Source: Eledone cirrhosa (lineage: Eukaryota). From it: a stretch of DNA of 26,508 bases. Of the stretch, positions 1 through 26,508 are shown piece after piece (the stretch's first letter is position 1; every line of letters starts with the position of its first letter). The stretch covers positions 1 through 26,508 of the forward strand of contig CAXHJY010001049.1 of assembly GCA_964016885.1 (NCBI GenBank). The letters are read 5' to 3'. The notes under the pieces are model-generated. The model made no database searches. It worked only from the letters and a program-made list of their open reading frames with translations, and was not told the DNA's origin. The position numbers and the translations under genes are program-made.

Positions 1-3000
1 ATTGTAGAGGGGGGAGTTGGTAGGGTGTGTATTGTAGAGGGGGGAGTTGGTAGAGTGTGTATTGTAGAGGGGGGAGTTGGTAGAGTGTGTATTGTAGAGG
101 GAGTTGGTAGAGTGTGTATTGTAGAGGGGGGAGTTGGTAGAGTGTGTATTGTAGAGGGAGTTGGTAGGGTGTGTATTGTAGAGGGGGGAGTTGGTAGAGT
201 GTGTATTGTAGAGGGGGGAGTTGGTGTTGGTAGGTGTGTATTGTAGAGGGGAGTTGGTAGAGTGTGTATTGTAGAGGGGGGAGTTGGTAGAGTGTGTATT
301 GTAGAGGGGAGTTGGTAGAGTGTGTATTGTAGAGGGGGGAGTTGGTAGAGTGTGTATTGTAGAGGGGGGAGTTGGTAGGGTGTGTATTGTAGAGGGAGTT
401 GGTAGAGTGTGTATTGTAGAGGGGGAGTTGGTAGAGTGTGTATTGTAGAGGGAGTTGGTAGAGTGTGTATTGTAGAGGGAGGGAGTTGGTATAGTGTGTA
501 TTGTAGAGGGAGTTGGTAGAGTGTGTATTGTAGAGGGAGGGAGTTGGTAGAGTGTGTATTGTAGAGGGAGTTGGTAGAGTGTGTATTGTAGAGGGGGTAG
601 GTGTATGTAGAGGGGGAGTTGGTAGGGTGTGTATTGTAGAGGGAGTTGGTAGAGTGTGTATTGTAGAGGGGGGAGTTGGTAGAGTGTGTATTGTAGAGGG
701 GGGAGTTGGTAGGGTGTGTATTGTAGAGGGAGGGATTTGGCAGAGTGTGTATTGTAGAGGCAGGGATTTGGTAGAGTGTGTATTGTAGAGGGGGAGTTGG
801 TAGAGTGTGTATTGTAGAGGGAGTTGGTAGAGTGTGTATTGTAGAGGGAGGGAGTTGGTATAGTGTGTATTGTAGAGGGAGTTGGTAGAGTGTGTATTGT
901 AGAGGGAGGGAGTTGGTATAGTGTGTATTGTAGAGGGAGTTGGTAGAGTGTGTATTGTAGAGGGGGGAGTTGGTAGAGTGTGTATTGTAGAGGGGGGAGT
1001 TGGTAGAGTGTGTATTGTAGAGGGAGTTGGTAGAGTGTGTATTGTAGAGGGGGGAGTTGGTAGAGTGTGTATTGTAGAGGGGGGAGTTGGTAGGGTGTGT
1101 ATTGTAGAGGGAGTTGGTAGAGTGTGTATTGTAGAGGGAGGGAGTTGGTATAGTGTGTATTGTAGAGGGAGTTGGTAGAGTGTGTATTGTAGAGGAGGGA
1201 GTTGGTATAGTGTGTATTGTAGAGGGAGTTGGTAGAGTGTGTATTGTAGAGGGGGGAGTTGGTAGAGTGTGTATTGTAGAGGGGGGAGTTGGTAGAGTGT
1301 GTATTGTAGAGGGAGTTGGTAGAGTGTGTATTGTAGAGGGGGGAGTTGGTAGAGTGTGTATTGTAGAGGGGGGAGTTGGTAGGGTGTGTATTGTAGAGGG
1401 AGTTGGTAGAGTGTGTATTGTAGAGGGGGGAGTTGGTAGAGTGTGTATTGTAGAGGGGGGAGTTGGTAGAGTGTGTATTGTAGAGGGGGGAGTTGGTAGA
1501 GTGTGTATTGTAGAGGGGGGAGTTGGTAGAGTGTGTATTGTAGAGGGAGGGGGGTAGAGTGTGTATTGTAGAGGGAGTTGGTAGAGTGTGTATTGTAGAG
1601 GGAGGGAGTTGGTAGAGTGTGTATTGTAGAGGGGGGAGTTGGTAGAGTGTGTATTGTAGAGGGAGTTGGTAGAGTGTGTATTGTAGAGGGGGGAGTTGGT
1701 AGGGTGTGTATTGTAGAGGGAGTTGGTAGAGTGTGTATTGTAGAGGGGGGAGTTGGTAGAGTGTGTATTGTAGAGGGGGGAGTTGGTAGAGTGTGTATTG
1801 TAGAGGGGGGAGTTGGTAGAGTGTGTATTGTAGAGGGGGGAGTTGGTAGAGTGTGTATTGTAGAGGGGGGAGTTGGTAGGGTGTGTATTGTAGAGGGAGT
1901 TGGTAGAGTGTGTATTGTAGAGGGGGGAGTTGGTAGAGTGTGTATTGTAGAGGGGGGAGTTGGTAGGGTGTGTATTGTAGAGGGAGTTGGTAGAGTGTGT
2001 ATTGTAGAGGGGGAGTTGGTAGAGTGTGTATTGTAGAGGGGGGAGTTGGTAGGGTGTGTATTGTAGAGGGAGTTGGTAGAGTGTGTATTGTAGAGGGGGG
2101 AGTTGGTAGAGTGTGTATTGTAGAGGGGGGAGTTGGTAGGGTGTGTATTGTAGAGGGAGTTGGTAGAGTGTGTATTGTAGAGGGAGGGAGTTGGTAGAGT
2201 GTGTATTGTAGAGGGAGGGAGTTGGTATAGTGTGTATTGTAGAGGGGGGAGTTGGTAGAGTGTGTATTGTAGAGGGAGGGGGGTAGAGTGTGTATTGTAG
2301 AGGGGGGAGTTGGTAGAGTGTGTATTGTAGAGGGGGGAGTTGGTAGAGTGTGTATTGTAGAGGGAGTTGGTAGAGTGTGTATTGTAGAGGGGGGAGTTGG
2401 TAGAGTGTGTATTGTAGAGGGGGGAGTTGGTAGAGTGTGTATTGTAGAGGGGGGAGTTGGTAGAGTGTGTATTGTAGGGGGAGTTGGTAGAGTGTGTATT
2501 GTAGAGGGAGGGAGTTGGTAGAGTGTGTATTGTAGAGGGAGGGAGTTGGTATAGTGTGTATTGTAGAGGGGGGAGTTGGTAGAGTGTGTATTGTAGAGGG
2601 GGGAGTTGGTAGAGTGTGTATTGTAGAGGGAGTTGGTAGAGTGTGTATTGTAGAGGGAGGGAGTTGGTAGAGTGTGTATTGTAGAGGGAGGGAGTTGGTA
2701 TAGTGTGTATTGTAGAGGGGGGAGTTGGTAGAGTGTGTATTGTAGAGGGAGGGGGGGTAGAGTGTGTATTGTAGAGGGGGGAGTTGGTAGAGTGTGTATT
2801 GTAGAGGGGGGAGTTGGTAGAGTGTGTATTGTAGAGGGAGTTGGTAGAGTGTGTATTGTAGAGGGGGGAGTTGGTAGAGTGTGTATTGTAGAGGGGGGAG
2901 TTGGTAGGGTGTGTATTGTAGAGGGAGTTGGTAGAGTGTGTATTGTAGAGGGGGGAGTTGGTAGAGTGTGTATTGTAGAGGGAGTTGGTAGAGTGTGTAT

Positions 3001-6000
3001 TGTAGAGGGAGGGAGTTGGTATAGTGTGTATTGTAGAGGGGGGGAGTTGGTAGAGTGTGTATTGTAGAGGGAGTTGGGAGAGTGTGTATTGTAGAGGGAG
3101 GGAGTTGGTAGAGTGTGTATTGTAGAGGGAGGGAGTTGGTAGAGTGTGTATTGTAGAGGGAGGGAGTTGGTAGAGTGTGTATTGTAGAGGGGGGAGTTGG
3201 TAGAGTGTGTATTGTAGAGGGAGTTGGGAGAGTGTGTATTGTAGAGGGAGGGAGTTGGTATAGTGTGTATTGTAGAGGGGGGAGTTGGTAGAGTGTGTAT
3301 TGTAGAGGGGGAGTTGGTAGAGTGTGTATTGTAGAGGGAGGGAGTTGGTAGAGTGTGTATTGTAGAGGGAGGGAGTTGGTAGAGTGTGTATTGTAGAGGG
3401 GGGAGTTGGTAGAGTGTGTATTGTAGAGGGGGGAGTTGGTAGAGTGTGTATTGTAGAGGGGGGAGTTGGTAGGGTGTGTATTGTAGAGGGGAGTTGGTAG
3501 AGTGTGTATTGTAGAGGGGGAGTTGGTAGAGTGTGTATTGTAGAGGGGGGAGTTGGTAGAGTGTGTATTGTAGAGGGAGTTGGTAGAGTGTGTATTGTAG
3601 AGGGAGGGAGTTGGTAGAGTGTGTATTGTAGAGGGAGGGAGTTGGTATAGTGTGTATTGTAGAGGGAGGGGGGTAGAGTGTGTATTGTAGAGGGAGTTGG
3701 TAGAGTGTGTATTGTAGAGGGAGGGAGTTGGTAGAGTGTGTATTGTAGAGGGAGGAGTTGGTAGAGTGTGTATTGTAGAGGGAGTTGGTAGAGTGTGTAT
3801 TGTAGAGGGAGGGAGTTGGTAGAGTGTGTATTGTAGAGGGAGGGAGTTGGTATAGTGTGTATTGTAGAGGGGGGAGTTGGTAGAGTGTGTATTGTAGAGG
3901 GAGGGGGGTAGAGTGTGTATTGTAGAGGGAGGGAGTTGGTAGAGTGTGTATTGTAGAGGGGGGAGTTGGTAGGGTGTGTATTGTAGAGGGAGGGAGTTGG
4001 TAGAGTGTGTATTGTAGAGGGAGGAGTTGGTAGAGTGTGTATTGTAGAGGGAGTTGGTAGAGTGTGTATTGTAGAGGGAGGGAGTTGGTAGAGTGTGTAT
4101 TGTAGAGGGAGGGAGTTGGTATAGTGTGTATTGTAGAGGGGGGAGTTGGTAGAGTGTGTATTGTAGAGGGAGGGGGGTAGAGTGTGTATTGTAGAGGGAG
4201 GGAGTTGGTAGAGTGTGTATTGTAGAGGGGGGAGTTGGTAGGGTGTGTATTGTAGAGGGAGGGAGTTGGTAGAGTGTGTATTGTAGAGGGAGGAGTTGGT
4301 AGAGTGTGTATTGTAGAGGGAGTTGGTAGAGTGTGTATTGTAGAGGGAGGGAGTTGGTAGAGTGTGTATTGTAGAGGGAGGGAGTTGGTATAGTGTGTAT
4401 TGTAGAGGGGGGAGTTGGTAGAGTGTGTATTGTAGAGGGAGGGGGGTAGAGTGTGTATTGTAGAGGGAGGGAGTTGGTAGGGTGTGTATTGTAGAGGGAG
4501 GGAGTTGGTAGAGTGTGTATTGTAGAGGGAGTTGGTAGAGTGTGTATTGTAGAGGGAGGGAGTTGGTAGAGTGTGTATTGTAGAGGGAGGGAGTTGGTAG
4601 AGTGTGTATTGTAGAGGGAGTTGGTAGAGTGTGTATTGTAGAGGGAGGGAGTTGGTATAGTGTGTATTGTAGAGGGGGGAGTTGGTAGAGTGTGTATTGT
4701 AGAGGGAGGAGTTGGTAGAGTGTGTATTGTAGAGGGGGGAGTTGGTAGGGTGTGTATTGTAGAGGGAGGGAGTTGGTAGAGTGTGTATTGTAGAGGGGGA
4801 GTTGGTAGAGTGTGTATTGTAGAGGGAGGAGTTGGTAGAGTGTGTATTGTAGAGGGGGAGTTGGTAGAGTGTGTATTGTAGAGGGAGTTGGTAGAGTGTG
4901 TATTGTAGAGGGAGGGAGTTGGTATAGTGTGTATTGTAGAGGGGGGAGTTGGTAGAGTGTGTATTGTAGAGGGAGGAGTTGGTAGAGTGTGTATTGTAGA
5001 GGGGGGAGTTGGTAGAGTGTGTATTGTAGAGGGGGGAGTTGGTAGAGTGTGTATTGTAGAGGGGGGAGTTGGTAGAGTGTGTATTGTAGAGGGAGGGAGT
5101 TGGTAGAGTGTGTATTGTAGAGGGAGTTGGTAGAGTGTGTATTGTAGAGGGGGGGAGTTGGTAGAGTGTGTATTGTAGAGGGGGAGTTGGTAGAGTGTGT
5201 ATTGTAGAGGGAGGAGTTGGGAGAGTGTGTATTGTAGAGGGGGGAGTTGGTAGAGTGTGTATTGTAGAGGGAGGGAGTTGGGAGAGTGTGTATTGTAGAG
5301 GGAGGGAGTTGGTAGAGTGTGTATTGTAGAGGGGAGTTGGGAGAGTGTGTATTGTAGAGGGGGGAGTTGGTAGAGTGTGTATTGTAGAGGGCGGAGTTGG
5401 TAGAGTGTGTATTGTAGAGGGGGGAGTTGGTAGAGTGTGTATTGTAGAGGAGGGAGTTGGTAGAGTGTGTATTGTAGAGGGAGGAGTTGGGAGAGTGTGT
5501 ATTGTAGAGGGGGGGAGTTGGTAGAGTGTGTATTGTAGAGGGGGGAGTTGGTAGAGTGTGTATTGTAGAGGGAGGGAGTTGGTAGAGTGTGTATTGTAGA
5601 GGGGGAGTTGGTAGAGTGTGTATTGTAGAGGGAGGAGTTGGGAGAGTGTGTATTGTAGAGGGGGGAGTTGGGAGAGTGTTATTGTAGAGGGGGGAGTTGG
5701 TAGAGTGTGTATTGTAGAGGGAGGGAGTTGGTAGAGTGTGTATTGTAGAGGGGGGAGTTGGTAGAGTGTGTATTGTAGAGGGAGGGAGTTGGGAGAGTGT
5801 GTATTGTAGAGGGAGTTGGGAGAGTGTGTATTGTAGAGGGGGGGAGTTGGTAGAGTGTGTATTGTAGAGGGCGGAGTTGGTAGAGTGTGTATTGTAGAGG
5901 GGGGAGTTGGTAGAGTGTGTATTGTAGAGGAGGGAGTTGGTAGAGTGTGTATTGTAGAGGGAGGGAGTTGGCAGAGTGTGTATTGTAGAGGGAGGGAGTT

Positions 6001-8846
6001 GGGAGAGTGTGTATTGTAGAGGAGGGAGTTGGCAGAGTGTGTATTGTAGAGGAGGGAGTTGGCAGAGTGTGTATTGTAGAGGGCGGAGTTGGTAGAGTGT
6101 GTATTGTAGAGGAGGGAGTTGGCAGAGTGTGTATTGTAGAGGGAGTTGGGAGAGTGTGTATTGTAGAGGGCGGAGTTGGTAGAGTGTGTATTGTAGAGGG
6201 GGAGTTGGTAGAGTGTGTATTGTAGAGGGAGGGAGTTGGTAGAGTGTGTATTGTAGAGGGGGAGTTGGTAGAGTGTGTATTGTAGAGGAGGGAGTTGGGA
6301 GAGTGTGTATTGTAGAGGGAGGGAGTTGGTAGAGTGTGTATTGTAGAGGGAGTTGGGAGAGTGTGTATTGTAGAGGGGGGGAGTTGGTAGAGTGTGTATT
6401 GTAGAGGGCGGAGTTGGTAGAGTGTGTATTGTAGAGGGGGGAGTTGGTAGAGTGTGTATTGTAGAGGAGGGAGTTGGTAGAGTGTGTATTGTAGAGGGAG
6501 GGAGTTGGCAGAGTGTGTATTGTAGAGGGAGGGAGTTGGGAGAGTGTGTATTGTAGAGGGAGGAGTTGGTAGAGTGTGTATTGTAGAGGGAGGGAGTTGG
6601 GAGAGTGTGTATTGTAGAGGGAGGGAGTTGGTAGAGTGTGTATTGTAGAGGAGGGAGTTGGCAGAGTGTGTATTGTAGAGGGAGGGAGTTGGGAGAGTGT
6701 GTATTGTAGAGGGAGGGAGTTGGTAGAGTGTGTATTGTAGAGGGAGGGAGTTGGTAGAGTGTGTATTGTAGAGGGAGGGAGTTGGAAGAGTGTGTATTGT
6801 AGAGGGAGGGAGTTGGTAGAGTGTGTATTGTAGAGGAGGGAGTTGGCAGAGTGTGTATTGTAGAGGAGGGAGTTGGCAGAGTGTGTATTGTAGAGGGCGG
6901 AGTTGGTAGAGTGTGTATTGTAGAGGAGGGAGTTGGTAAGAAGTGTGTATTGTAGAGGGAGGGAGTTGGTAGAGTGTGTATTGTAGAGGAGGGAGTTGGC
7001 AGAGTGTGTATTGTAGAGGGAGTTGGGAGAGTGTGTATTGTAGAGGGCGGAGTTGGTAGAGTGTGTATTGTAGAGGGGGGAGTTGGTAGAGTGTGTATTG
7101 TAGAGGGAGGAGTTGGTAGAGTGTGTATTGTAGAGGAGGGAGTTGGCAGAGTGTGTATTGTAGAGGGAGTTGGGAGAGTGTGTATTGTAGAGGGCGGAGT
7201 TGGTAGAGTGTGTATTGTAGAGGGCGGAGTTGGTAGAGTGTGTATTGTAGAGGGGGGAGTTGGTAGAGTGTGTATTGTAGAGGGAGGAGTTGGCAGAGTG
7301 TGTATTGTAGAGGGAGGGAGTTGGTAGAGTGTGTATTGTAGAGGGGGAGTTGGCAGAGTGTGTATTGTAGAGGGAGGGAGTTGGTAGAGTGTGTATTGTA
7401 GAGGGGGGAGTTGGCAGAGTGTGTATTGTAGAGGGGGGGAGTTGGTAGAGTGTGTATTGTAGAGGGCGGAGTTGGTAGAGTGTGTATTGTAGAGGGGGAG
7501 TTGGTAGAGTGTGTATTGTAGAGGAGGATTGAGTTGGTAGAGTGTGTATTGTAGAGGGCGGAGTTGGTAGAGTGTGTATTGTAGAGGGGGGAGTTGGTAG
7601 AGTGTGTATTGTAGAGGCAGGGATTTGGCAGAGTGTGTATTGTAGAGGCAGGGATTTGGCAGAGTGTGTATTGTAGAGGGAGGGAGTTGGAAGAGTGTGT
7701 ATTGTAGAGGGCGGAGTTGGTAGAGTGTGTATTGTAGAGGAGGGAGTTGGCAGAGTGTGTATTGTAGAGGGCGGAGTTGGTAGAGTGTGTATTGTAGAGG
7801 GGGGAGTTGGTAGAGTGTGTATTGTAGAGGCGGAGTTGGTAGAGTGTGTATTGTAGAGGAGGGAGTTGGCAGAGTGTGTATTGTAGAGGCAGGGATTTGG
7901 TAGAGTGTGTATTGTAGAGGGGGGAGTTGGTAGAGTGTGTATTGTAGAGGAGGGAGTTGGCAGAGTGTGTATTGTAGAGGGGGGAGTTGGTAGAGTGTGT
8001 ATTGTAGAGGGAGGGAGTTGGCAGAGTGTGTATTGTAGAGGGAGGGAGTTGGTAGAGTGTGTATTGTAGAGGGGGGAGTTGGCAGAGTGTGTATTGTAGA
8101 GGGCGGAGTTGGTAGAGTGTGTATTGTAGAGGGGGGAGTTGGTAGAGTGTGTATTGTAGAGGAGGGAGTTGGCAGAGTGTGTATTGTAGAGGGGGGAGTT
8201 GGTAGAGTGTGTATTGTAGAGGAGGGAGTTGGCAGAGTGTGTATTGTAGAGGGCGGAGTTGGTAGAGTGTGTATTGTAGAGGGGGGAGTTGGTAGAGTGT
8301 GTATTGTAGAGGAGGGAGTTGGCAGAGTGTGTATTGTAGAGGCAGGGATTTGGCAGAGTGTGTATTGTAGAGGCAGGGATTTGGCAGAGTGTGTATTGTA
8401 GAGGGAGGGAGTTGGAAGAGTGTGTATTGTAGAGGGGGGAGTTGGTAGAGTGTGTATTGTAGAGGGAGGGAGTTGGCAGAGTGTGTATTGTAGAGGGAGG
8501 GAGTTGGTAGAGTGTGTATTGTAGAGGGCGGAGTTGGTAGAGTGTGTATTGTAGAGGAGGGAGTTGGCAGAGTGTGTATTGTAGAGGGCGGAGTTGGTAG
8601 AGTGTGTATTGTAGAGGGGGGAGTTGGTAGAGTGTGTATTGTAGAGGAGGGAGTTGGCAGAGTGTGTATTGTAGAGGCAGGGATTTGGCAGAGTGTGTAT
8701 TGTAGAGGCAGGGATTTGGCAGAGTGTGTATTGTAGAGGGAGGGAGTTGGAAGAGTGTGTATTGTAGAGGGAGGGAGTTGGAAGAGTGTATTGTAGAGGG
8801 AGGAGTTGGCAGAGTGTGTATTGTAGAGGGGGGGAGTTGGCAGAGT
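1..8846. repeat. G-rich minisatellite, unit ATTGTAGA-(G/A-rich variable spacer)-AGTTGG(T/C/G)AGAGTGTGT, 27-31 bp, roughly 300 copies; truncated by window start
   Basis: Continuous tandem units; length variation is almost confined to the G-run after GTAGA; the + strand is nearly free of C; last partial unit ends ...GGGGAGTTGGCAGAGT at 8846. Confidence 0.98.
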
Positions 8847-8958
8847 TATTAGAACGTCAGGATACCTTGTTGATATTTGTTCCGGTTCTGTGAACCCTCT
8901 GAGTTCAAATCCAGCTGAGGTTAACTTTACCTTTTATCATTCGAGGGTCGATGAAAAA
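8828..8958 (+). mobile_element. Degenerate tRNA-derived SINE 5' part (octopus-type SINE)
   Basis: A-box-like TGGCAGAGTTA (8838-8848) and B-box-like GAGTTCAAATCC (8901-8912) at Pol III spacing, followed by AGCTGAGGTTAACTTTACCTTTTATCATTCGAGGGTCGATGAAA. This resembles my recollection of the abundant Octopus SINE body; family identity not database-verified. Confidence 0.7.
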
Positions 8959-11771: not shown

Positions 11772-11960
11772 CATATATATACATAAGTGAAGAGAGGTTC
11801 TTTTATAGGTTTGTGTGTAGGATTTAGATAGTATTTGAAGAGTCAAAAATAATATTTATTGTTAACAATGAATGTTTGATTTGTATTTTCGCTGATACCA
11901 CTGGCTTCTCACTACTGTACATAAGTGTATGAGGGGGGATTTCTATATCTGAATATGAGT

Positions 11961-18512
<6,552 letters not shown>

Positions 18513-18528
<16 letters not shown>

Positions 18529-18682
18529 AGGCGGGTAAAACTCCCAAGATCCATGGACGAGTTCTCTCCAGCGGTCTCTGTCCCTCATTATCGCTGCCAT
18601 ATCCTGCATCTCCAACAGACCAGTGTCTGTCCTACATGGACACACTAGAAGGGGAAGACCAAGGTTAACATATGTTGATACA
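18513..18682 (-). mobile_element. 5'-truncated, 5'-inverted RTE-clade LINE 3' fragment
   Basis: Minus strand 18633-18526 encodes [35 protein letters not shown] running into a (TAGA)4 tail. Plus strand 18632-18682 encodes [17 protein letters not shown], the motif that normally precedes DTG...M.DR..WR in RTE ORF C-termini. Confidence 0.75.
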
Positions 18683-18749
18683 TATACATATATACATACA
18701 TACATATATATATATATACATACATATATATATATATATACATACATAC

Positions 18750-18787
<38 letters not shown>

Positions 18788-18937
18788 ATACATACATATA
18801 TATACATATATATATATATACATACATATATATGTATGTATATATATATATATGTATGTATATATATATATATGTATATATATGTATGTATATATATATA
18901 TATATATATACATACATATATATATATATATACATAC

Positions 18938-18968
<31 letters not shown>

Positions 18969-18998
18969 CATACATATATATATATATACATACATATA

Positions 18999-19039
<41 letters not shown>

Positions 19040-19070
19040 ATACATACATATATATATATATACATACATA
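18681..19070. repeat. (TA)n/(TACA)n microsatellite, left flank of the LINE
   Basis: Direct reading. Confidence 0.95.
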
Positions 19071-19150
19071 CGTGTTTTTACTTCTCTCCCCGAGTAAGCA
19101 GCAAGTCACACAGCCACAAAACAAAACCACAAGACAAAACCAAACAAACA

Positions 19151-19251
19151 AAAATTGACCGGTTAATACATTTTCATACATCTATATTATTATATATTTG
19201 AAAATTGACCGGTTAATACATTTTTCATACATCTATATTATTATATATTTG
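19151..19251 (+). repeat. 50/51-bp tandem duplication in the LINE 5' region
   Basis: AAAATTGACCGGTTAATACATTTT(T)CATACATCTATATTATTATATATTTG at 19151 and 19201. Confidence 0.95.
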
Positions 19252-19265
19252 AAACCACGTGTTTT

Positions 19266-19743
19266 CGAACTTGTGAGTACATTTTCCTTTAACTACAAAT
19301 TATTATTATATACTTTCGTCTTTTCATTAACTTAATTAATTTCAAATAACCAGAATATACATATATATATATATACTCATATTTATATATATACGCTTCT
19401 CACTCACACACAAGAAAAACAAAAAACAAAAATAAATCAAAAATAAATTTAAAAAAAATATATATATATTGAAATACTTAACTAAAACACACACACACGA
19501 ACTTGTGAGAACATTTTCCTTTAACTACAAATTATTATTATATACTTTCGTCTTTTCATTAACTTAATTAATTTCAAATAACCAGAATATACATATATAT
19601 ATATATATATACTCATATTTATATATATACGCTTCTCACTCACACACAAGAAAAACAAAAAACAAAAATAAATCAAAAATAAATTTAAAAAAAAAATAAA
19701 ATATATATATATATTGAAATACTTAACTAAAACACACACACAC
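19266..19743 (+). repeat. ~232-bp tandem duplication in the LINE 5'UTR (19266-19497 / 19498-19743)
   Basis: Both copies begin CGAACTTGTGAG.ACATTTTCCTTTAACTAC and end GAAATACTTAACTAAAACACACAC; they differ mainly in simple-repeat lengths. Confidence 0.95.
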
Positions 19744-19754
19744 TCAAAACTAGA

Positions 19755-20942
19755 ATGGCTAACCAGCAAAAATCCAAACAGAACTGGTCTGATAATGAAA
19801 TCGACATTCTAATAAACACATGGCATTGCCTTTCCCAAACAGAAAATATAGATGCTTCATCTCTGAACGACATTGCTAAACGTACAGTTCAATTTTTGAA
19901 AACTCGATCTGAACAACAGATTCAAAATAAATTAAAGCAAATCGAAATTGCTTTTAAATTAATCAATAAACATTTGGATAAACTACGGTGTGTTTTCTCT
20001 TTGAATGCTGTCCAGCAGCAGCAACAACAACAACAGCAGCTACAACAGCAACAACAACAACAGCAGCTACAACAGCAACAACAACAACAACAACAACAGC
20101 TACAACAACAACAACAGCAACAACAACAACAACAACGACAACAACAGTGTGAACCACTCCTTGATTCATCAACAATGGCCGATCTACTAAATGAAACTAT
20201 TGACCCCCCAGTAGCCTCTGTCTCACAGCATGAAACGCCACATCCTTTCTCTGGCCCAGCAGTCCAATCATCATCACCACTGCCAACATCTCTGCCTACT
20301 ACTACTACTACTACTACAACATTTTTGTCTACTGCTATGTCAAGGAATTTACCTTCTAATACCAGAACAAGAACTCTCCCTCCCACAGTCCACAAAGGTC
20401 ATCAAATCCTACCCAAACCATCATCTACACCTCTCACAACACCCACACCCACATGCCCACCCACTCGAAACCCCATCATTTGCCGCTACTCTCTACGCTA
20501 TAGAATATGTACGGATAGTGGCTGCAAATTCACCCATTTACCTAGGACAAAACGATCTATCCCCACAAACAGCCACCACCATAATACATACTCTAATTTA
20601 ACACCAACACAACCACCAATAACTCAAACAAGGAATCCACAAATCTGCCGTTTTTCCCTGCGAGACAGATTGTGTTTAGACCGGGATTGTCCCTTTACCC
20701 ATCTCCCGGGGACCCGTCGGATAAATGAAAATAAAATTAAAAATAAAAGCAAAAACAAAAACCATAACCTACATAAAAATAACCACTACCACAGTCACCA
20801 ACAGTCTTCTAAACAGGAAACTTCTTCCTCTTTTTTAGCCATAATGAATCTGGCAAAAGAACTGGAAAAAAACATTCGAGCTATCACCCAGCACCACCCT
20901 CCACTATCACCCCACTGCACAAACTCCCATTGCTGCCATTAA
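19755..20942 (+). CDS. LINE ORF1 protein, 395 aa: N-terminal Myb/SANT(trihelix)-like domain, polyQ tract, Pro/Thr/Ser-rich linker, two CCCH zinc fingers
   Basis: ATG start; WSDNEIDILINTW...IAK...RSEQQIQNKLKQI; C-x8-C-x4-C-x3-H at 20481-20537 and 20646-20702; lies immediately upstream of the RT ORF. Confidence 0.85.
   Translation: MANQQKSKQNWSDNEIDILINTWHCLSQTENIDASSLNDIAKRTVQFLKTRSEQQIQNKLKQIEIAFKLINKHLDKLRCVFSLNAVQQQQQQQQQLQQQQQQQQLQQQQQQQQQQLQQQQQQQQQQQRQQQCEPLLDSSTMADLLNETIDPPVASVSQHETPHPFSGPAVQSSSPLPTSLPTTTTTTTTFLSTAMSRNLPSNTRTRTLPPTVHKGHQILPKPSSTPLTTPTPTCPPTRNPIICRYSLRYRICTDSGCKFTHLPRTKRSIPTNSHHHNTYSNLTPTQPPITQTRNPQICRFSLRDRLCLDRDCPFTHLPGTRRINENKIKNKSKNKNHNLHKNNHYHSHQQSSKQETSSSFLAIMNLAKELEKNIRAITQHHPPLSPHCTNSHCCH
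20013..20147 (+). repeat. In-frame CAA/CAG repeat (about 41 Gln in 45 codons)
   Basis: CAA/CAG run broken by three CTA (Leu) and one CGA (Arg). Confidence 0.95.
20831..20837 (+). promoter_or_regulatory. Candidate -1 ribosomal frameshift slippery heptamer T_TTT_TTA
   Basis: In phase with ORF1 codons (TCT TTT TTA); the -1 frame is open from the TAA at 20810-12 straight into ORF2. Confidence 0.65.
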
Positions 20943-23900
20943 CAAACAAACAAATTAACAACACACCAAAACAATTAAAACCATCCACTCTCGCCTCTAC
21001 ATTTTTGCTTAACGCCCAAGGCATCAGCCCTTCCACCAATACTCAAAAATGGAAGATCAAATTCCTGGAGGACTGGATTGATGTCCATCCAAACCACATC
21101 CCTTTCTTCGTCCTCACTGAAACCCATCTCAGTAACCTCCACTTGGAAGCCGAGGTGAAAGTGAAAAATTTCAAAGCCATCCGTGCTGATCGCGCTGGCA
21201 GAAGAAAGGGCGGAACTGCCATTTATGTCCATAATTCTTTCTCAACAGAGGCTATGAACATATTCACTAATGGATACTGTGAGGCAGTCACTGTATTCAG
21301 TCAAACCAACAACCTATTAGTAGTTGGGCTCTATAGGCCACCCCAAACGCCTGTACCATGCTTCAAGGAATGCCTCAACAGCATAAAGTGTTTCATCCAA
21401 GAGTGTCACCCTGACAACATCTTAATGATGGGGGACTTCAACCTCCCCGGAGTTGACTGGTCCACAAACACCCTGCCACCAGGTTCTTCTGCCTCAACCT
21501 CTGACAGGGAAGCTGTGGAATCGCTTCTTGACTTCATGGATGATTTCTTCCTATCCCAACTAGTGCTCGAACCAACGAGGTGCCACAAAAACGTCCTAGA
21601 CTTAATTTTCAGCAATCACACTGACAATATCCACAATATTGCAGTGGAGAAAACTCTACTCTCTGATCATGACATGGTTCTCTGTGATCTGAGATTCCAC
21701 CGTCCAATATACAAACCCAATGTCATTTCTCCTGTCCATCCGTTTGACGCTATGGATTTCCACAATGCAAACTGGGAAGCGATCAGTCATGATCTTGCAC
21801 ATGTCGACTGGTCCTTCACGCACACTCATACACCCACTAACATCAAAAAGTCCTGGCAGACTTTTGTGGACACTGTTACAAACATATGTGCTAAACACAC
21901 CCCATTAAGAACTATAAACAAATCTAAGAGCAGAATCCCTAGAAATAGAAAAACACTCATCAGAAAAATTAAGAGAACGAACAAAAAAATCAACAAGCTG
22001 AAATACTGTCAGCAGCAACACATCAACTTGACTGCCATTTCATCACTAGAGATTAAAAAACATAACCTCCAAAACAACATAATGTCCCTCATCAACAATC
22101 AGAGAAGAGCTGAAGAGGCCTGGGCCATTGAGAAGATCAAACTCAATCCCAAAGTGTTCTTTTCATTTGCAAAAAAACACAAAATCACTGGCTCTACTGT
22201 TGGCCCTCTAATTGATGAAAATGGCACTCTTCAAGACAATGCTAAAACCATGGGTGAGATACTGCAGAAACAATACTGCTCTGTTTTCAGCAATCCTGAT
22301 ATGGCCGATCTGGGCTGTATCGGCGATGTTACTCCCCATTACACCTTATCGGACATAACGTTTGGCGCCCCTGATGTCTTGGCGGCAATAAAGGAAATCA
22401 AACATAATTCAGCAGTAGGTCCCGATAGGTTCCCTGCTTGTGTCTTGAAGGCGTGTCAACACCAACTTGCTTCTCCTCTTGCCAATCTGTGGCGGAACTC
22501 ACTGGATGCTGGATATGTGCCAGAAAACCTTCTATCCCAGTCTGTTGTCCCAGTTTTCAAAAAGGGAAACAAATCCCTTGCCGTGAATTACCGTCCAATC
22601 TCACTCACCTCTCATATCATTAAGGTATTTGAGCGAGTGGTGAGATCGCGAATGACCCACTTCCTTGAGAGTAACAATATGCTGAACTCCAACCAGCATG
22701 GATTCCGTAATGGAAGGGATTGCCTGACGCAACTACTGCATCACTTTGATGACATTTTGAGAGCCTTGGGAGAGGGTTCCAACACTGATGTTATCTACCT
22801 TGATTTCAGCAAGGCCTTTGACAGGGTTGATCATAACATTCTACTGAGAAAGCTGTCCAATATTGGTGTCACTGGAAAGCTGCTGCAGTGGATCAAGAGC
22901 TTCCTGTCAAACAGAACCCAACATGTTGTAGTTGAGGGAGTCAAATCAAGCCCAGCCAAAGTCAGTAGTGGAGTCCCACAAGGCACTGTGTTGGGCCCAC
23001 TTCTCTTCATCATCTATATTAATGACATCACTGACATCATCAAACACAGCAACATTAAAATTTTCGCTGATGATTCCAAGCTCCAAAAGGTCATCAATGG
23101 CGTGGATGACCGGATAAGCCTTCAGTCAGACCTACTGGCTGTTACCCAATGGGCAGAAAAGAACAACATGTTACTGAACGAAGACAAATTCGAACTGATC
23201 CACTTTGGAAAAGAGGATGCTCTGAAACTCCCGTACTCCCTTCCCTCCGGGGAAACTCTCGTGGCATCTAACAACATCAGAGACTTGGGAGTAACCGTGG
23301 ACAGCAACATAAGCTGGACCACGCATATAAGCAGCAAAGTTGACATGGCCCGCAGAATGTGTTCCTGGATCCTCAGAACCTTCCAGTCGAGAGATTCCCG
23401 CACCATTATCCTTCTCTTCTCTACTTTCGCCCGACCACACCTTGAATACTGTTGTCCACTGTGGTCTCCCCACACGAAACAAAGTATCATGAAACTTGAA
23501 GCTCCTCAAAGGGCAATCACGAAAAAGATAGATGGCATGTCAGACCTTGACTACTGGGGTCGATTGGAAAACCTGAAACTTTACTCACTCCAACGTCGCC
23601 GTGAGCGTTATATTATCTGCATGATGTGGAAAATGTTCCATCATCACTGCCCAAATGATGTTGGCATCGCCTTCAAGATACACCCAAGGCTTGGGCCCCG
23701 TGCTATCCGTCCCATTCAAAAATCTAAATCGCAACTCATAACAACAATACGGCACAATTATTTCACCTCAATCGGCCCTGCTCTCTTCAACATCACACCA
23801 GGACACGTCAAAACAGAAACTGACCACACAAGATTCAAGAAGTCTTTGGACAAATTCCTCCAAGTAATCCCGGACAAACCACCCACACCCGGATATGTCT

Positions 23901-23950
23901 CCGCAAACAGTAATTCTCTTCTCGAATGGGCCATGGTGCCCAAATCCTGA
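20930..23950 (+). CDS. LINE ORF2: APE-type endonuclease + reverse transcriptase, CR1 group (frame open from 20813; the TTG start is a track artefact)
   Basis: EN motifs [46 protein letters not shown] motifs [44 protein letters not shown]-terminal [13 protein letters not shown] and [10 protein letters not shown]. No stops or frameshifts. Confidence 0.97.
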
Positions 23951-23996
23951 ATTGAAAGACTTCGCCAGGTGGTGCTATTAAGTTAGACATGGCCTG

Positions 23997-24035
23997 GGCC
24001 AATACTGGCCAAAACATTTCAAAGTTATTCAAAGT

Positions 24036-24037
<2 letters not shown>
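23997..24037 (+). other. LINE 3' terminal stem-loop and tandem tail
   Basis: GGCCA-ATAC-TGGCC hairpin (23997-24010), then TTCAAAGTTA x2 (24018-24037); a stem-loop plus short-repeat tail is characteristic of CR1/L2-group 3' ends. Confidence 0.7.
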
Positions 24038-24087
<50 letters not shown>

Positions 24088-24095
24088 CATACATA

Positions 24096-24136
<41 letters not shown>

Positions 24137-24474
24137 ATACATACATATATATATATATACATACATATATATATATATACATACATATATATATACATAC
24201 ATACATATATATATATATACATACATATATATATACATACATACATATACATATATATATATATATACATACATATACATACATACATATACATATATAT
24301 ATATACATATATATATACATACATACATATACATATACATATATACATATATATATACATACATACACATATATATATATACACATACATATATATATAT
24401 ATACACATACATATATATATATATACACATACATATATATATATATATATACACATACATATATATATATATAT

Positions 24475-24505
<31 letters not shown>

Positions 24506-25226
24506 CACACATACATATATATATATATATATACACACATACATATATATATATATATATACACACATACATATATATATATATATATACACACATACAT
24601 ATATATATATATATATACACATACATACATATATATATATATACACATACATATATATATATATACACATACATATATATATATATACACATACATATAT
24701 ATATATATACACATACATATATATATATATACACATACATATATATATATATACACATACATATATATATATATACACATACATATATATATATATACAC
24801 ATACATATATATATATATACACATACATATATATATATATACACATACATATATATATATATACACATACATATATATATACACATACATATATATATAT
24901 ATACACATACATATATATACACATACATATACATATACATACATATATACACATACATATATATATATATACACATACATATATATATATATACACATAC
25001 ATATATATATATATACACATACATATATATATATATACACATACATATATATATATATACACATACATATATATATATATACACATACATATATATATAT
25101 ATATACATACATATATATATATATACATACATATATATATACATACATATATATATATACATACATATATATATATATACATACATATATATATATATAT
25201 ACATACAATATATATACATACATATA

Positions 25227-25258
<32 letters not shown>

Positions 25259-25371
25259 CATATATATATACATACATATATATATATATACATACATACA
25301 TATATATATACATACATACATATATATACATACATACATATATATATATATACATACATACATATAAATAC

Positions 25372-25410
<39 letters not shown>

Positions 25411-25487
25411 CATATATATATATATACATACATACATATATATACATACATACATATATATACATACATACATATATATATATATAC

Positions 25488-25521
<34 letters not shown>

Positions 25522-25525
25522 ATAC

Positions 25526-25559
<34 letters not shown>

Positions 25560-25605
25560 ATATACATACATACATATATATATACATACATACATATATA
25601 TATAC

Positions 25606-25639
<34 letters not shown>

Positions 25640-25645
25640 ATATAC

Positions 25646-25679
<34 letters not shown>

Positions 25680-25685
25680 ATATAC

Positions 25686-25747
<62 letters not shown>

Positions 25748-26497
25748 ATACATACATACATATATATATACATACATATATATATATACATACATATATA
25801 TATATATACATACATATATATATATATACATACATATATATATATACATACATATATATATATATACACACATATATATATATACACACACATATATATA
25901 TATATACACACATATATATATATATACACACATATATATATATATACACACATATATATATATACACACATATATATATATATACACACATATATATATA
26001 TATACACACATATATATATATATACTCACATATATATATATATATACTCACATATATATATATATATACTCACATATATATATATATATATACTCACATA
26101 TATATATATATATATACTCACATATATATATATATATACACACATATATATATATACATACATATATATATATATACATACATACATATATACATACATA
26201 TATATATACATACATATATATATATATATACATACATACATATATACATACATATATATATACATACATATATATATATATATACATACATACATATATA
26301 TATATATATACATACATATATATATATATACACACACATATATATATATACACACATATATATATATACACACATATATATATATACACACATATATATA
26401 TATACACATATATATCTATATATATACACACATATATATATATATATACATACATATATATTTATATATATACACACACATATATATATATACACAC
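24038..26497. repeat. ~2.5 kb compound (TA)n/(TACA)n/(CA) microsatellite, right flank of the LINE
   Basis: Direct reading; local 18-bp units ACACATACATATATATAT at ~24640-25090. Confidence 0.97.
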
Positions 26498-26508
26498 AAA
26501 CTGGAAAA

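Follow-up and report, generated by a model that had tools for sequence, protein, structure and literature searches.

The DNA analysed here (the window) is a stretch of 26,508 nucleotides (nt) from Eledone cirrhosa, corresponding to positions 1 to 26,508 of contig CAXHJY010001049.1 (assembly GCA_964016885.1). The 3' part of the window is a long interspersed nuclear element (LINE) of ~5 kb, which is CR1-like and embedded in TA/TACA microsatellite. It has two open reading frames (ORFs) that overlap by 130 nt; the second encodes an endonuclease (EN) and a reverse transcriptase (RT) and lies in the -1 frame relative to the first. Comparison with relatives makes it probable that -1 programmed ribosomal frameshifting, at a U_UUU_UUA heptamer (20831-37), is how the clade to which this LINE belongs translates ORF2, as had been proposed from the letters of the window alone (the original prediction). 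The features on which the argument turns are the following.

19070..24037, + strand: CR1-like LINE, near-full-length, inserted in (TA)n/(TACA)n; its tail ends at 24037
19755..20942, + strand: ORF1, 395 amino acids, with a Myb/SANT-like N-terminus, poly-Q, two CCCH-like fingers and a C-terminal helix
20481..20537, + strand: CCCH-like finger 1, C-x8-C-x4-C-x3-H, read off the translation
20646..20702, + strand: CCCH-like finger 2, a weak Pfam zf-CCCH match (E 0.3-0.8, below cut-off)
20810..20812, + strand: stop codon TAA of the -1 frame, ending 18 nt 5' of the putative slip site
20813..23950, + strand: ORF2 frame, 1045 codons, -1 relative to ORF1, with EN and RT domains
20831..20837, + strand: slippery heptamer U_UUU_UUA, ORF1 codons x-Phe-Leu, then G
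20832..20891, + strand: ORF1-frame amphipathic helix FL..L..E.., conserved, beginning at the slip site and predicted from its residue pattern
20837..20995, + strand: S/T/P/H-rich linker in the -1 frame, stop-free, from the slip site to EN
20867..20873, + strand: second phased heptamer, A_AAA_AAC, not conserved
20996..21680, + strand: APE endonuclease, its first strands 5' of the first ORF2 ATG (21254)
22565..23296, + strand: reverse transcriptase domain (PF00078, E=4e-31)

The layout is as originally described: the -1 frame opens after the TAA at 20810-12, a correctly phased T TTT TTA follows 18 nt later, and the first ATG in the ORF2 frame (21254-56) lies 3' of the EN motifs LNAQG (21008) and LTETH. 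The L1-type arrangement, in which the ORFs are separate and an AUG opens ORF2, is absent from the window, and the UAAUG stop-start is lacking from the window and 13 other elements, only L102 having a TAATG. (A start codon created by A-to-I editing was considered and rejected; there is no ORF2-frame ATA between 20813 and 21014.) Nor is the layout peculiar to one damaged copy. In the 3.0-Gb host genome 599 places match a 32-nt sequence of the junction exactly, which argues that an AUG-less ORF2 overlapping ORF1 in the -1 frame is the design of the family rather than the product of decay. Positions 20650-21450 are unchanged in all 40 scored copies (from 1547 candidates), so that neither an upstream ATG nor a single fused ORF, either of which would have told against frameshifting, has come to light. 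A sequencing run from a relative (X9) bears on the same point through the 40 changes listed of a total of 88, whose codon positions were counted by hand. Between 20992 and 21235, 11 of 13 changes fall at ORF2 third positions, and the ATG at 21254 reads ACG in 9145 of 10878 reads of depth; it follows that the part of EN lying 5' of this ATG is under coding selection and that the ATG itself is dispensable. None of the listed changes affects the heptamer, and four of the five within the overlap are at ORF1 third positions.

Relatives were collected by endonuclease similarity alone, blind to the heptamer. A metagenome scan gave 64 loci, consisting of 13 close ones with DNA 5' of EN, five similar ones that are cut there (L098, L107, L115, L117 and L128) and 46 that are more distant; the 13, together with three families of the host genome, provide 16 assessable representatives, all of which fall into one clade in a quick endonuclease tree (SH-aLRT 99). 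Thirteen of the 16 have a phased U_UUU_UUA, including 10 of the 13 metagenome loci. The others have U_UUU_UUG (L106), G_GAU_UUU positioned one codon earlier (L092, the metagenome row nearest the window) or no canonical heptamer (L096, in which the upstream frame is broken and contains in-frame ATGs). The statistics given below cover 15 elements and do not include L096, whose helix is not placeable. Within the host genome, family 2 (70% amino-acid identity; 137 pattern matches) has TTTTTTA in 17 of 22 junction-covering copies, and family 3 (34% amino-acid identity, bait P0002; 222 exact copies) has it in 17 of 24, 30 copies having been fetched for each; the copies without it differ by point changes and deletions at scattered positions. 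(In four of the 22 family-2 copies, L038, L044, L045 and L046, there are short deletions inside the junction hairpin region.) The G after the heptamer is retained in 14 of 15 elements, the base preceding it is never T (0/15), and positions further 5' are not conserved. An overlap of 130 nt might contain one heptamer by chance alone; its conservation across families is beyond chance. The second phased heptamer of the window, A_AAA_AAC, which the original prediction had overlooked, reads G_AAA_AAC in family 2 and is also missing from the other families; because it is not kept in relatives, it is not the slip site. No relatives were found among viral contigs.

Because the heptamer coincides with codons of ORF1, its conservation could reflect either RNA or protein. 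This was addressed by a codon test on the 15 elements in which the ORF1 helix (x-F-L-[EDAVG]...) is placeable. The residue before Phe is S, N, Y, H, P or D, yet the third base of its codon is T in all 15 (6.5 expected); the Phe codon is likewise TTT in all 15 (6.8 expected), and the Leu codon is TTA in 13 (2.05 expected). Given the amino acids, the full heptamer is observed 13 times versus an expectation of 0.42. Elsewhere the same sequences are highly divergent: the median is 0.36 for pairwise amino-acid identity and 0.38 (0.27-0.54) for codon identity at shared residues, and synonymous sites among relatives are near saturation. At conserved Leu columns of EN the commonest codon occupies only 3-7 of 13-15 rows, and the Leu, Lys and Glu codons further along the same ORF1 helix vary freely. 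As judged from these alignments, the test shows that the heptamer is conserved at the nucleotide level beyond what the amino acids require.

The reading frames around the junction point in the same direction. From the heptamer to EN the -1 frame has no stops in 1467 codons, versus 116 expected from the stop rate of the -1 frame beneath upstream ORF1; the third frame has 79 stops in 1321 codons of the same region. The -1 frame shuts no more than 42 nt 5' of the heptamer in 11 of 14 elements (0 nt in L103), and the linker, which ranges from 135 to ~640 nt in relatives, is always open. Ten of 15 elements have no ORF2-frame ATG between the heptamer and the first EN strand, and 67 of 92 homologous predicted proteins begin within EN. 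(The CCCH pattern has no match in the first 350 residues of 272 proteins, a length-limited sample that is uninformative on natural in-frame fusions.)

Taken together, an ORF2 without an AUG and a heptamer kept in 13 of 16 representatives make it likely that ribosomes shift back by one base and thereby produce the enzyme as a fusion with the ORF1 protein. Most ribosomes would stay in frame 0 and yield the 395-residue ORF1 protein with its C-terminal helix, while a minority would slip at Phe-Leu to give a junction ...SSS-F-L/F-SHNESGK.... The resulting fusion of ~1398 residues would comprise 361 residues from ORF1, among them the Myb-like and CCCH segments, followed by a disordered linker, EN and RT; the ORF1 C-terminal helix (20832-20891) would be missing from it. 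The slip would thereby exchange this helix for EN-RT and set a low ratio of ORF2 to ORF1 protein, as between gag and gag-pol. The site resembles HIV-type -1 frameshift sites in having a phased X_XXY_YYZ, a -1 frame that is open to the enzyme and closed shortly upstream, and conservation at the nucleotide level. Since the downstream stem-loop is lacking, it is not classed as a complete HIV-type cassette, even though it is predicted to work like the HIV site.

The search for such a stimulator is among the points that weigh against frameshifting. The GCCA/TGGC arms at 20838-54 are present as originally described, and the judgement that the window holds no convincing stimulator stands: z values range from -1.8 to +0.7 over all tested spacers and lengths, and no HIV-type stem-loop lies 5-9 nt downstream in the window family (pseudoknots being outside the modelling). 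There is also no clade-wide structure, the consensus fold having -0.45 kcal/mol and no compensatory pairs. A hairpin 5-7 nt downstream reaches z<-2 in four of 15 elements (L093, L097, L101 and L106). L093, L106, L102 and L101 share a predicted hairpin that starts 6 nt downstream and in which, by eye, at least one C-G pair seems to have changed to U-A; it is a candidate stimulator for that subclade. Two other structures were rejected. One is a hairpin whose 5' arm is the U run itself; its z is -2.8 in a single sliding window out of 40, and it recurs weakly, with no compensatory pairs, in nine marine relatives. Long-distance pairing with the element's own 3' tail gives p 0.16-0.55 in six of eight copies (borderline values of 0.028 and 0.054 in two family-2 copies), and own pairs are no better than cross pairs. 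A stem-loop is not a prerequisite for slippage on U_UUU_UUA. The failure to find an RNA stimulator in the window family leads to the more tentative proposal that slippage there is basal or driven by slow decoding of UUA. At the HIV site, the Phe-Phe route grows when the tRNA reading UUA is scarce, according to the available text of PMC6547452.

Other points against frameshifting concern the numbers and the frames themselves. The P value for the heptamer in the codon test, 4e-20 under independence, is too small because the elements share ancestry, and part of the conservation is at the protein level because the slip site coincides with the conserved ORF1 helix. The count of zero stops in the -1 frame is partly circular, since heptamers were first sought within the open -1 frame, a circularity that is limited by TTTTTTA being single within 1500 nt 5' of EN in all 13 carriers. 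Frame 0 is likewise open, with no stops in 1359 codons versus 45 expected, and the ORF1 stop lies between EN-59 and EN+13 in 15 of 15 elements, a position that frameshifting does not require. Finally, L102 has the TAATG stop-start mentioned above, and L094 has an ATG 27 nt 5' of EN.

The position of the ORF1 stop and the open frame 0 leading to it are what would be expected of termination-reinitiation, in which ribosomes restart near the ORF1 stop at a non-AUG codon (an AUG in some families) and release a free ORF2 protein, as proposed for L1 and SART1. An ATG at or near the start of EN in L093, L094, L103 and L106 agrees with such a restart, as do the 25 of 92 homologs whose called start coincides with the first EN strand or precedes it (the caller may use GTG or TTG). 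Precedent exists in the SART1 and L1 routes (as given in the accessible portion of PMC5972666) and in the finding that the AUG of L1 ORF2 can be replaced by a sense codon (PMC1965478, likewise in part). Reinitiation does not explain, however, why the heptamer is fixed at synonymous positions or is swapped for G_GAU_UUU, nor why the -1 frame, which shuts just ahead of the heptamer, stays open over the 135-640 nt leading to the restart point. In addition, no conserved near-cognate codon is visible at the ORF1 stop, and a Q/P-rich tail of ORF1, long and under selection, that reaches to the beginning of EN coding would account for the stop position equally well. Reinitiation is thus an unlikely main route, but it may coexist with frameshifting as a minor one.

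The original prediction had allowed that ORF2 might instead be reached by splicing, with TTTTTTAG acting as a 3' splice acceptor that links an upstream AUG exon to ORF2. The G kept after the heptamer and the pyrimidine-rich stretch before the TAG in the window are compatible with this idea, but the ORF1 codon that follows (E/D/A/V/G) starts with G anyway, the base 5' of the six T's is, as noted, not a T, and in most families purines predominate there. The putative acceptor is TAG, never CAG, and the AG is missing in L092 and L106. No spliced retrocopy, with foreign sequence at the AG, turned up: beside 599 intact junctions there is one non-T match and beside 222 there are two, all of them point variants, in a test that required a non-T three bases before the G and detects about three quarters of random junctions. 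Eight sequencing runs, of DNA or unspecified type, show no joint at 20838/39, a result that carries no weight either way; coverage of the junction is poor or nil in X6, X7 and X8. Trans-splicing would leave no in-frame AUG. Splicing is accordingly very improbable.

Slippage of RNA polymerase on the U6 run, which would add one base and produce an mRNA with fused frames, is similarly hard to credit. A run of seven or more T's occurs in 11 of the 599 copies, and the 10 that were viewed comprise five with a net one-base insertion, as this explanation would predict, one with +2, three substitutions and one truncation. The +1 copies nevertheless amount to ~1% of the 599, a rate that homopolymer assembly error can reach, and RNAs coding for the enzyme should be over-represented among insertions if there is any cis preference. 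Furthermore, the run is only six T's and is kept from lengthening, L092 has four, and polymerase slippage has no need of UUA. Least probable of all is that the motif is merely a by-product of the conserved Phe-Leu start of the ORF1 helix: all 15 elements preserve the FL..L..E helix, and most of the X9 changes within the overlap are synonymous in ORF1, but synonymous positions are fixed solely at the heptamer, so that the codon test largely refutes it, and ORF2 would be left without a way in.

The domains that -1 frameshifting would place on the enzyme are less certain than the frames. Matches to Myb-like and CCCH domains were found in ORF1 of the window, as originally suggested, but they are below the curated Pfam cut-offs (PF13837, E=0.0025, for the Myb-like segment); in the homologous ORF1 of L099, the PF00642 match is above the cut-off. 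The N-terminus of ORF1 has a PHD-like finger and two or three CCCH fingers in marine L095, L099, L101 and L102, and a Myb-like segment with one or two CCCH fingers in the host-genome families, most matches being below cut-off. The N-terminal module of ORF1 is swapped inside one clade, as read from domain matches that lie mostly below cut-off.

The remaining parts of the element are its untranslated regions (UTRs).

19070..19754, + strand: 5' UTR, with a ~232-nt unit duplicated (19266-19498, 19498-19743), from self-matches
23951..24037, + strand: 3' UTR, two predicted hairpins followed by a 10-nt tandem-repeat tail

A second, shorter duplicated unit lies in the 5' UTR near 19151-19254, and its copy number apparently differs between copies. 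The LINE family is young and abundant; when aligned with window positions 19070-22950, its copies are 98-99.8% identical. Two of them, L003 and L004, extend a few bases further 5' than the copy in the window. L003 also has ~30 additional bases 5' of the equivalent of 19070, present twice, that contain the words CAGTT and GGACGTG and are missing from the window copy; we take these words to resemble the internal promoter (Inr/DPE) of insect LINEs. At the other end, a short tandem-repeat tail, hairpins in the 3' UTR and the absence of poly-A are a hallmark of the CR1 group, and this hallmark is present here, as is an ORF2 that combines an APE endonuclease with RT. The double hairpin before the tail is similarly predicted in families 2 and 3, L094 and L104; with window 23960-24015 as the reference, it is predicted in L094, L104, L168 and L175 despite unrelated 3' UTR sequences. 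Judging from these predicted folds, it is likely a recognition signal for the RT. The closest named protein for the RT region is from Argonauta hians (60%); identity to two bird proteins is 36-40%. In the quick EN tree the clade is separate from the bird row, in a set of rows that does not include named CR1, L2, Crack or Daphne references.

TA-rich 5' flanks are seen in 19 of 22 visible copies (L001-L030), and the tails of families 1-3 continue into (TA)n. A target preference of the family for TA microsatellites is possible, the flank counts having been made without a genome-wide background. In L172 (~4350-5000) the 3' end of a family-2 copy leads into a TA tract, beyond which that 3' end is repeated in inverted orientation. 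Elsewhere in the window, positions 1-8856 are an 8.8-kb G-rich minisatellite of extreme strand skew (GC skew 0.9-1.0), whose minus strand contains open frames, and 11800-19070 and 24038-26500 are multi-kb TA/TACA arrays that show strand-skew switches.

On present evidence the chances are even that CR1-group LINEs in general have from early on obtained RT as an ORF1-ORF2 fusion, through -1 frameshifting of the retroviral kind. A phased heptamer is listed for 12 of the other 51 metagenome loci; in six of the eight examined it lies at the end of an upstream frame of 210-795 nt. Phased heptamers near the end of other ORF1 types occur in L110, L111, L118, L149, L112 and L137; these six have A_AAA_AAC (three loci), G_GGA_AAC, A_AAU_UUU and U_UUU_UUA. 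The heptamers of distant loci, counted without a chance expectation, are a lead. If frameshifting is indeed used, a large animal LINE clade follows gag-pol logic, with a fixed low dose of enzyme, and the tethering of RNA-binding CCCH fingers to EN-RT would offer a physical basis for choice of the element's own RNA. Widespread mis-calling of their ORF2 starts would be a further consequence, as the homologs beginning inside EN suggest.

The worked animal examples of LINE ORF2 translation, L1 and SART1, give a free ORF2 protein through reinitiation. The available parts of PMC5972666 and PMC1965478 describe SART1 UAAUG coupling and mammalian L1 reinitiation, both forms of termination-reinitiation. 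The window element is like these in its bicistronic RNA, low (here predicted) ORF2 output and an ORF1 stop near the start of EN; it differs in that theirs is a free protein from an AUG, whereas the window has neither AUG nor stop-start and instead has a 130-nt overlap and a fixed heptamer. With the CR1-group LINEs (CR1, L2, Crack, Daphne, Kiri and Rex1; PMC13343379 and PMC4120745, as far as available) it shares an ORF2 with APE and RT, a tandem-repeat tail and 5' truncation, and its marine relatives share the PHD-like finger in ORF1; the difference is that here ORF1 has CCCH fingers with a Myb-like or PHD-like N-terminus. The available main text of PMC4120745 does not mention CCCH, Myb, frameshift or overlap, and that of PMC13343379 does not mention frameshift, overlap, slippery or CCCH. 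In the literature as partly available, no report of -1 frameshifting in CR1-group LINEs was found; subscription papers, Repbase Reports and supplements, which were outside this scope, may hold an earlier remark.

Frameshifting has been invoked for other retroelements, according to the portions of the papers available. Paramecium LINEs have been suggested to use +1 frameshifting or reinitiation (PMC5405496), and HeT-A gag requires a frameshift (PMC5009743). A -1 frameshift is stated to be needed for ORF2 of Dictyostelium TRE5-A and TRE3-A, which are APE-type elements lacking long terminal repeats (PMC5911963); these differ in being amoebozoan and tRNA-gene-targeting, with an oligo(A) tail and a C-terminal zinc finger. 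The heptamer of L092, one relative only, is the shift site G_GAU_UUU of the umbravirus PEMV, a plant RNA virus (PMC5009743). As for HIV-1 gag-pol (described in the same partial sources, PMC6547452 and PMC5009743), the likeness includes the heptamer, its phase, the following G and an RT in the -1 frame. The structural protein is in frame 0 in both, FL/FF heterogeneity is predicted at the junction, and family 3 reads N-F-L across the site. The LINE differs from HIV-1 in that the window family has no downstream stem-loop, in being a non-LTR element with neither protease nor capsid, and in that the slip would remove a conserved ORF1 helix.

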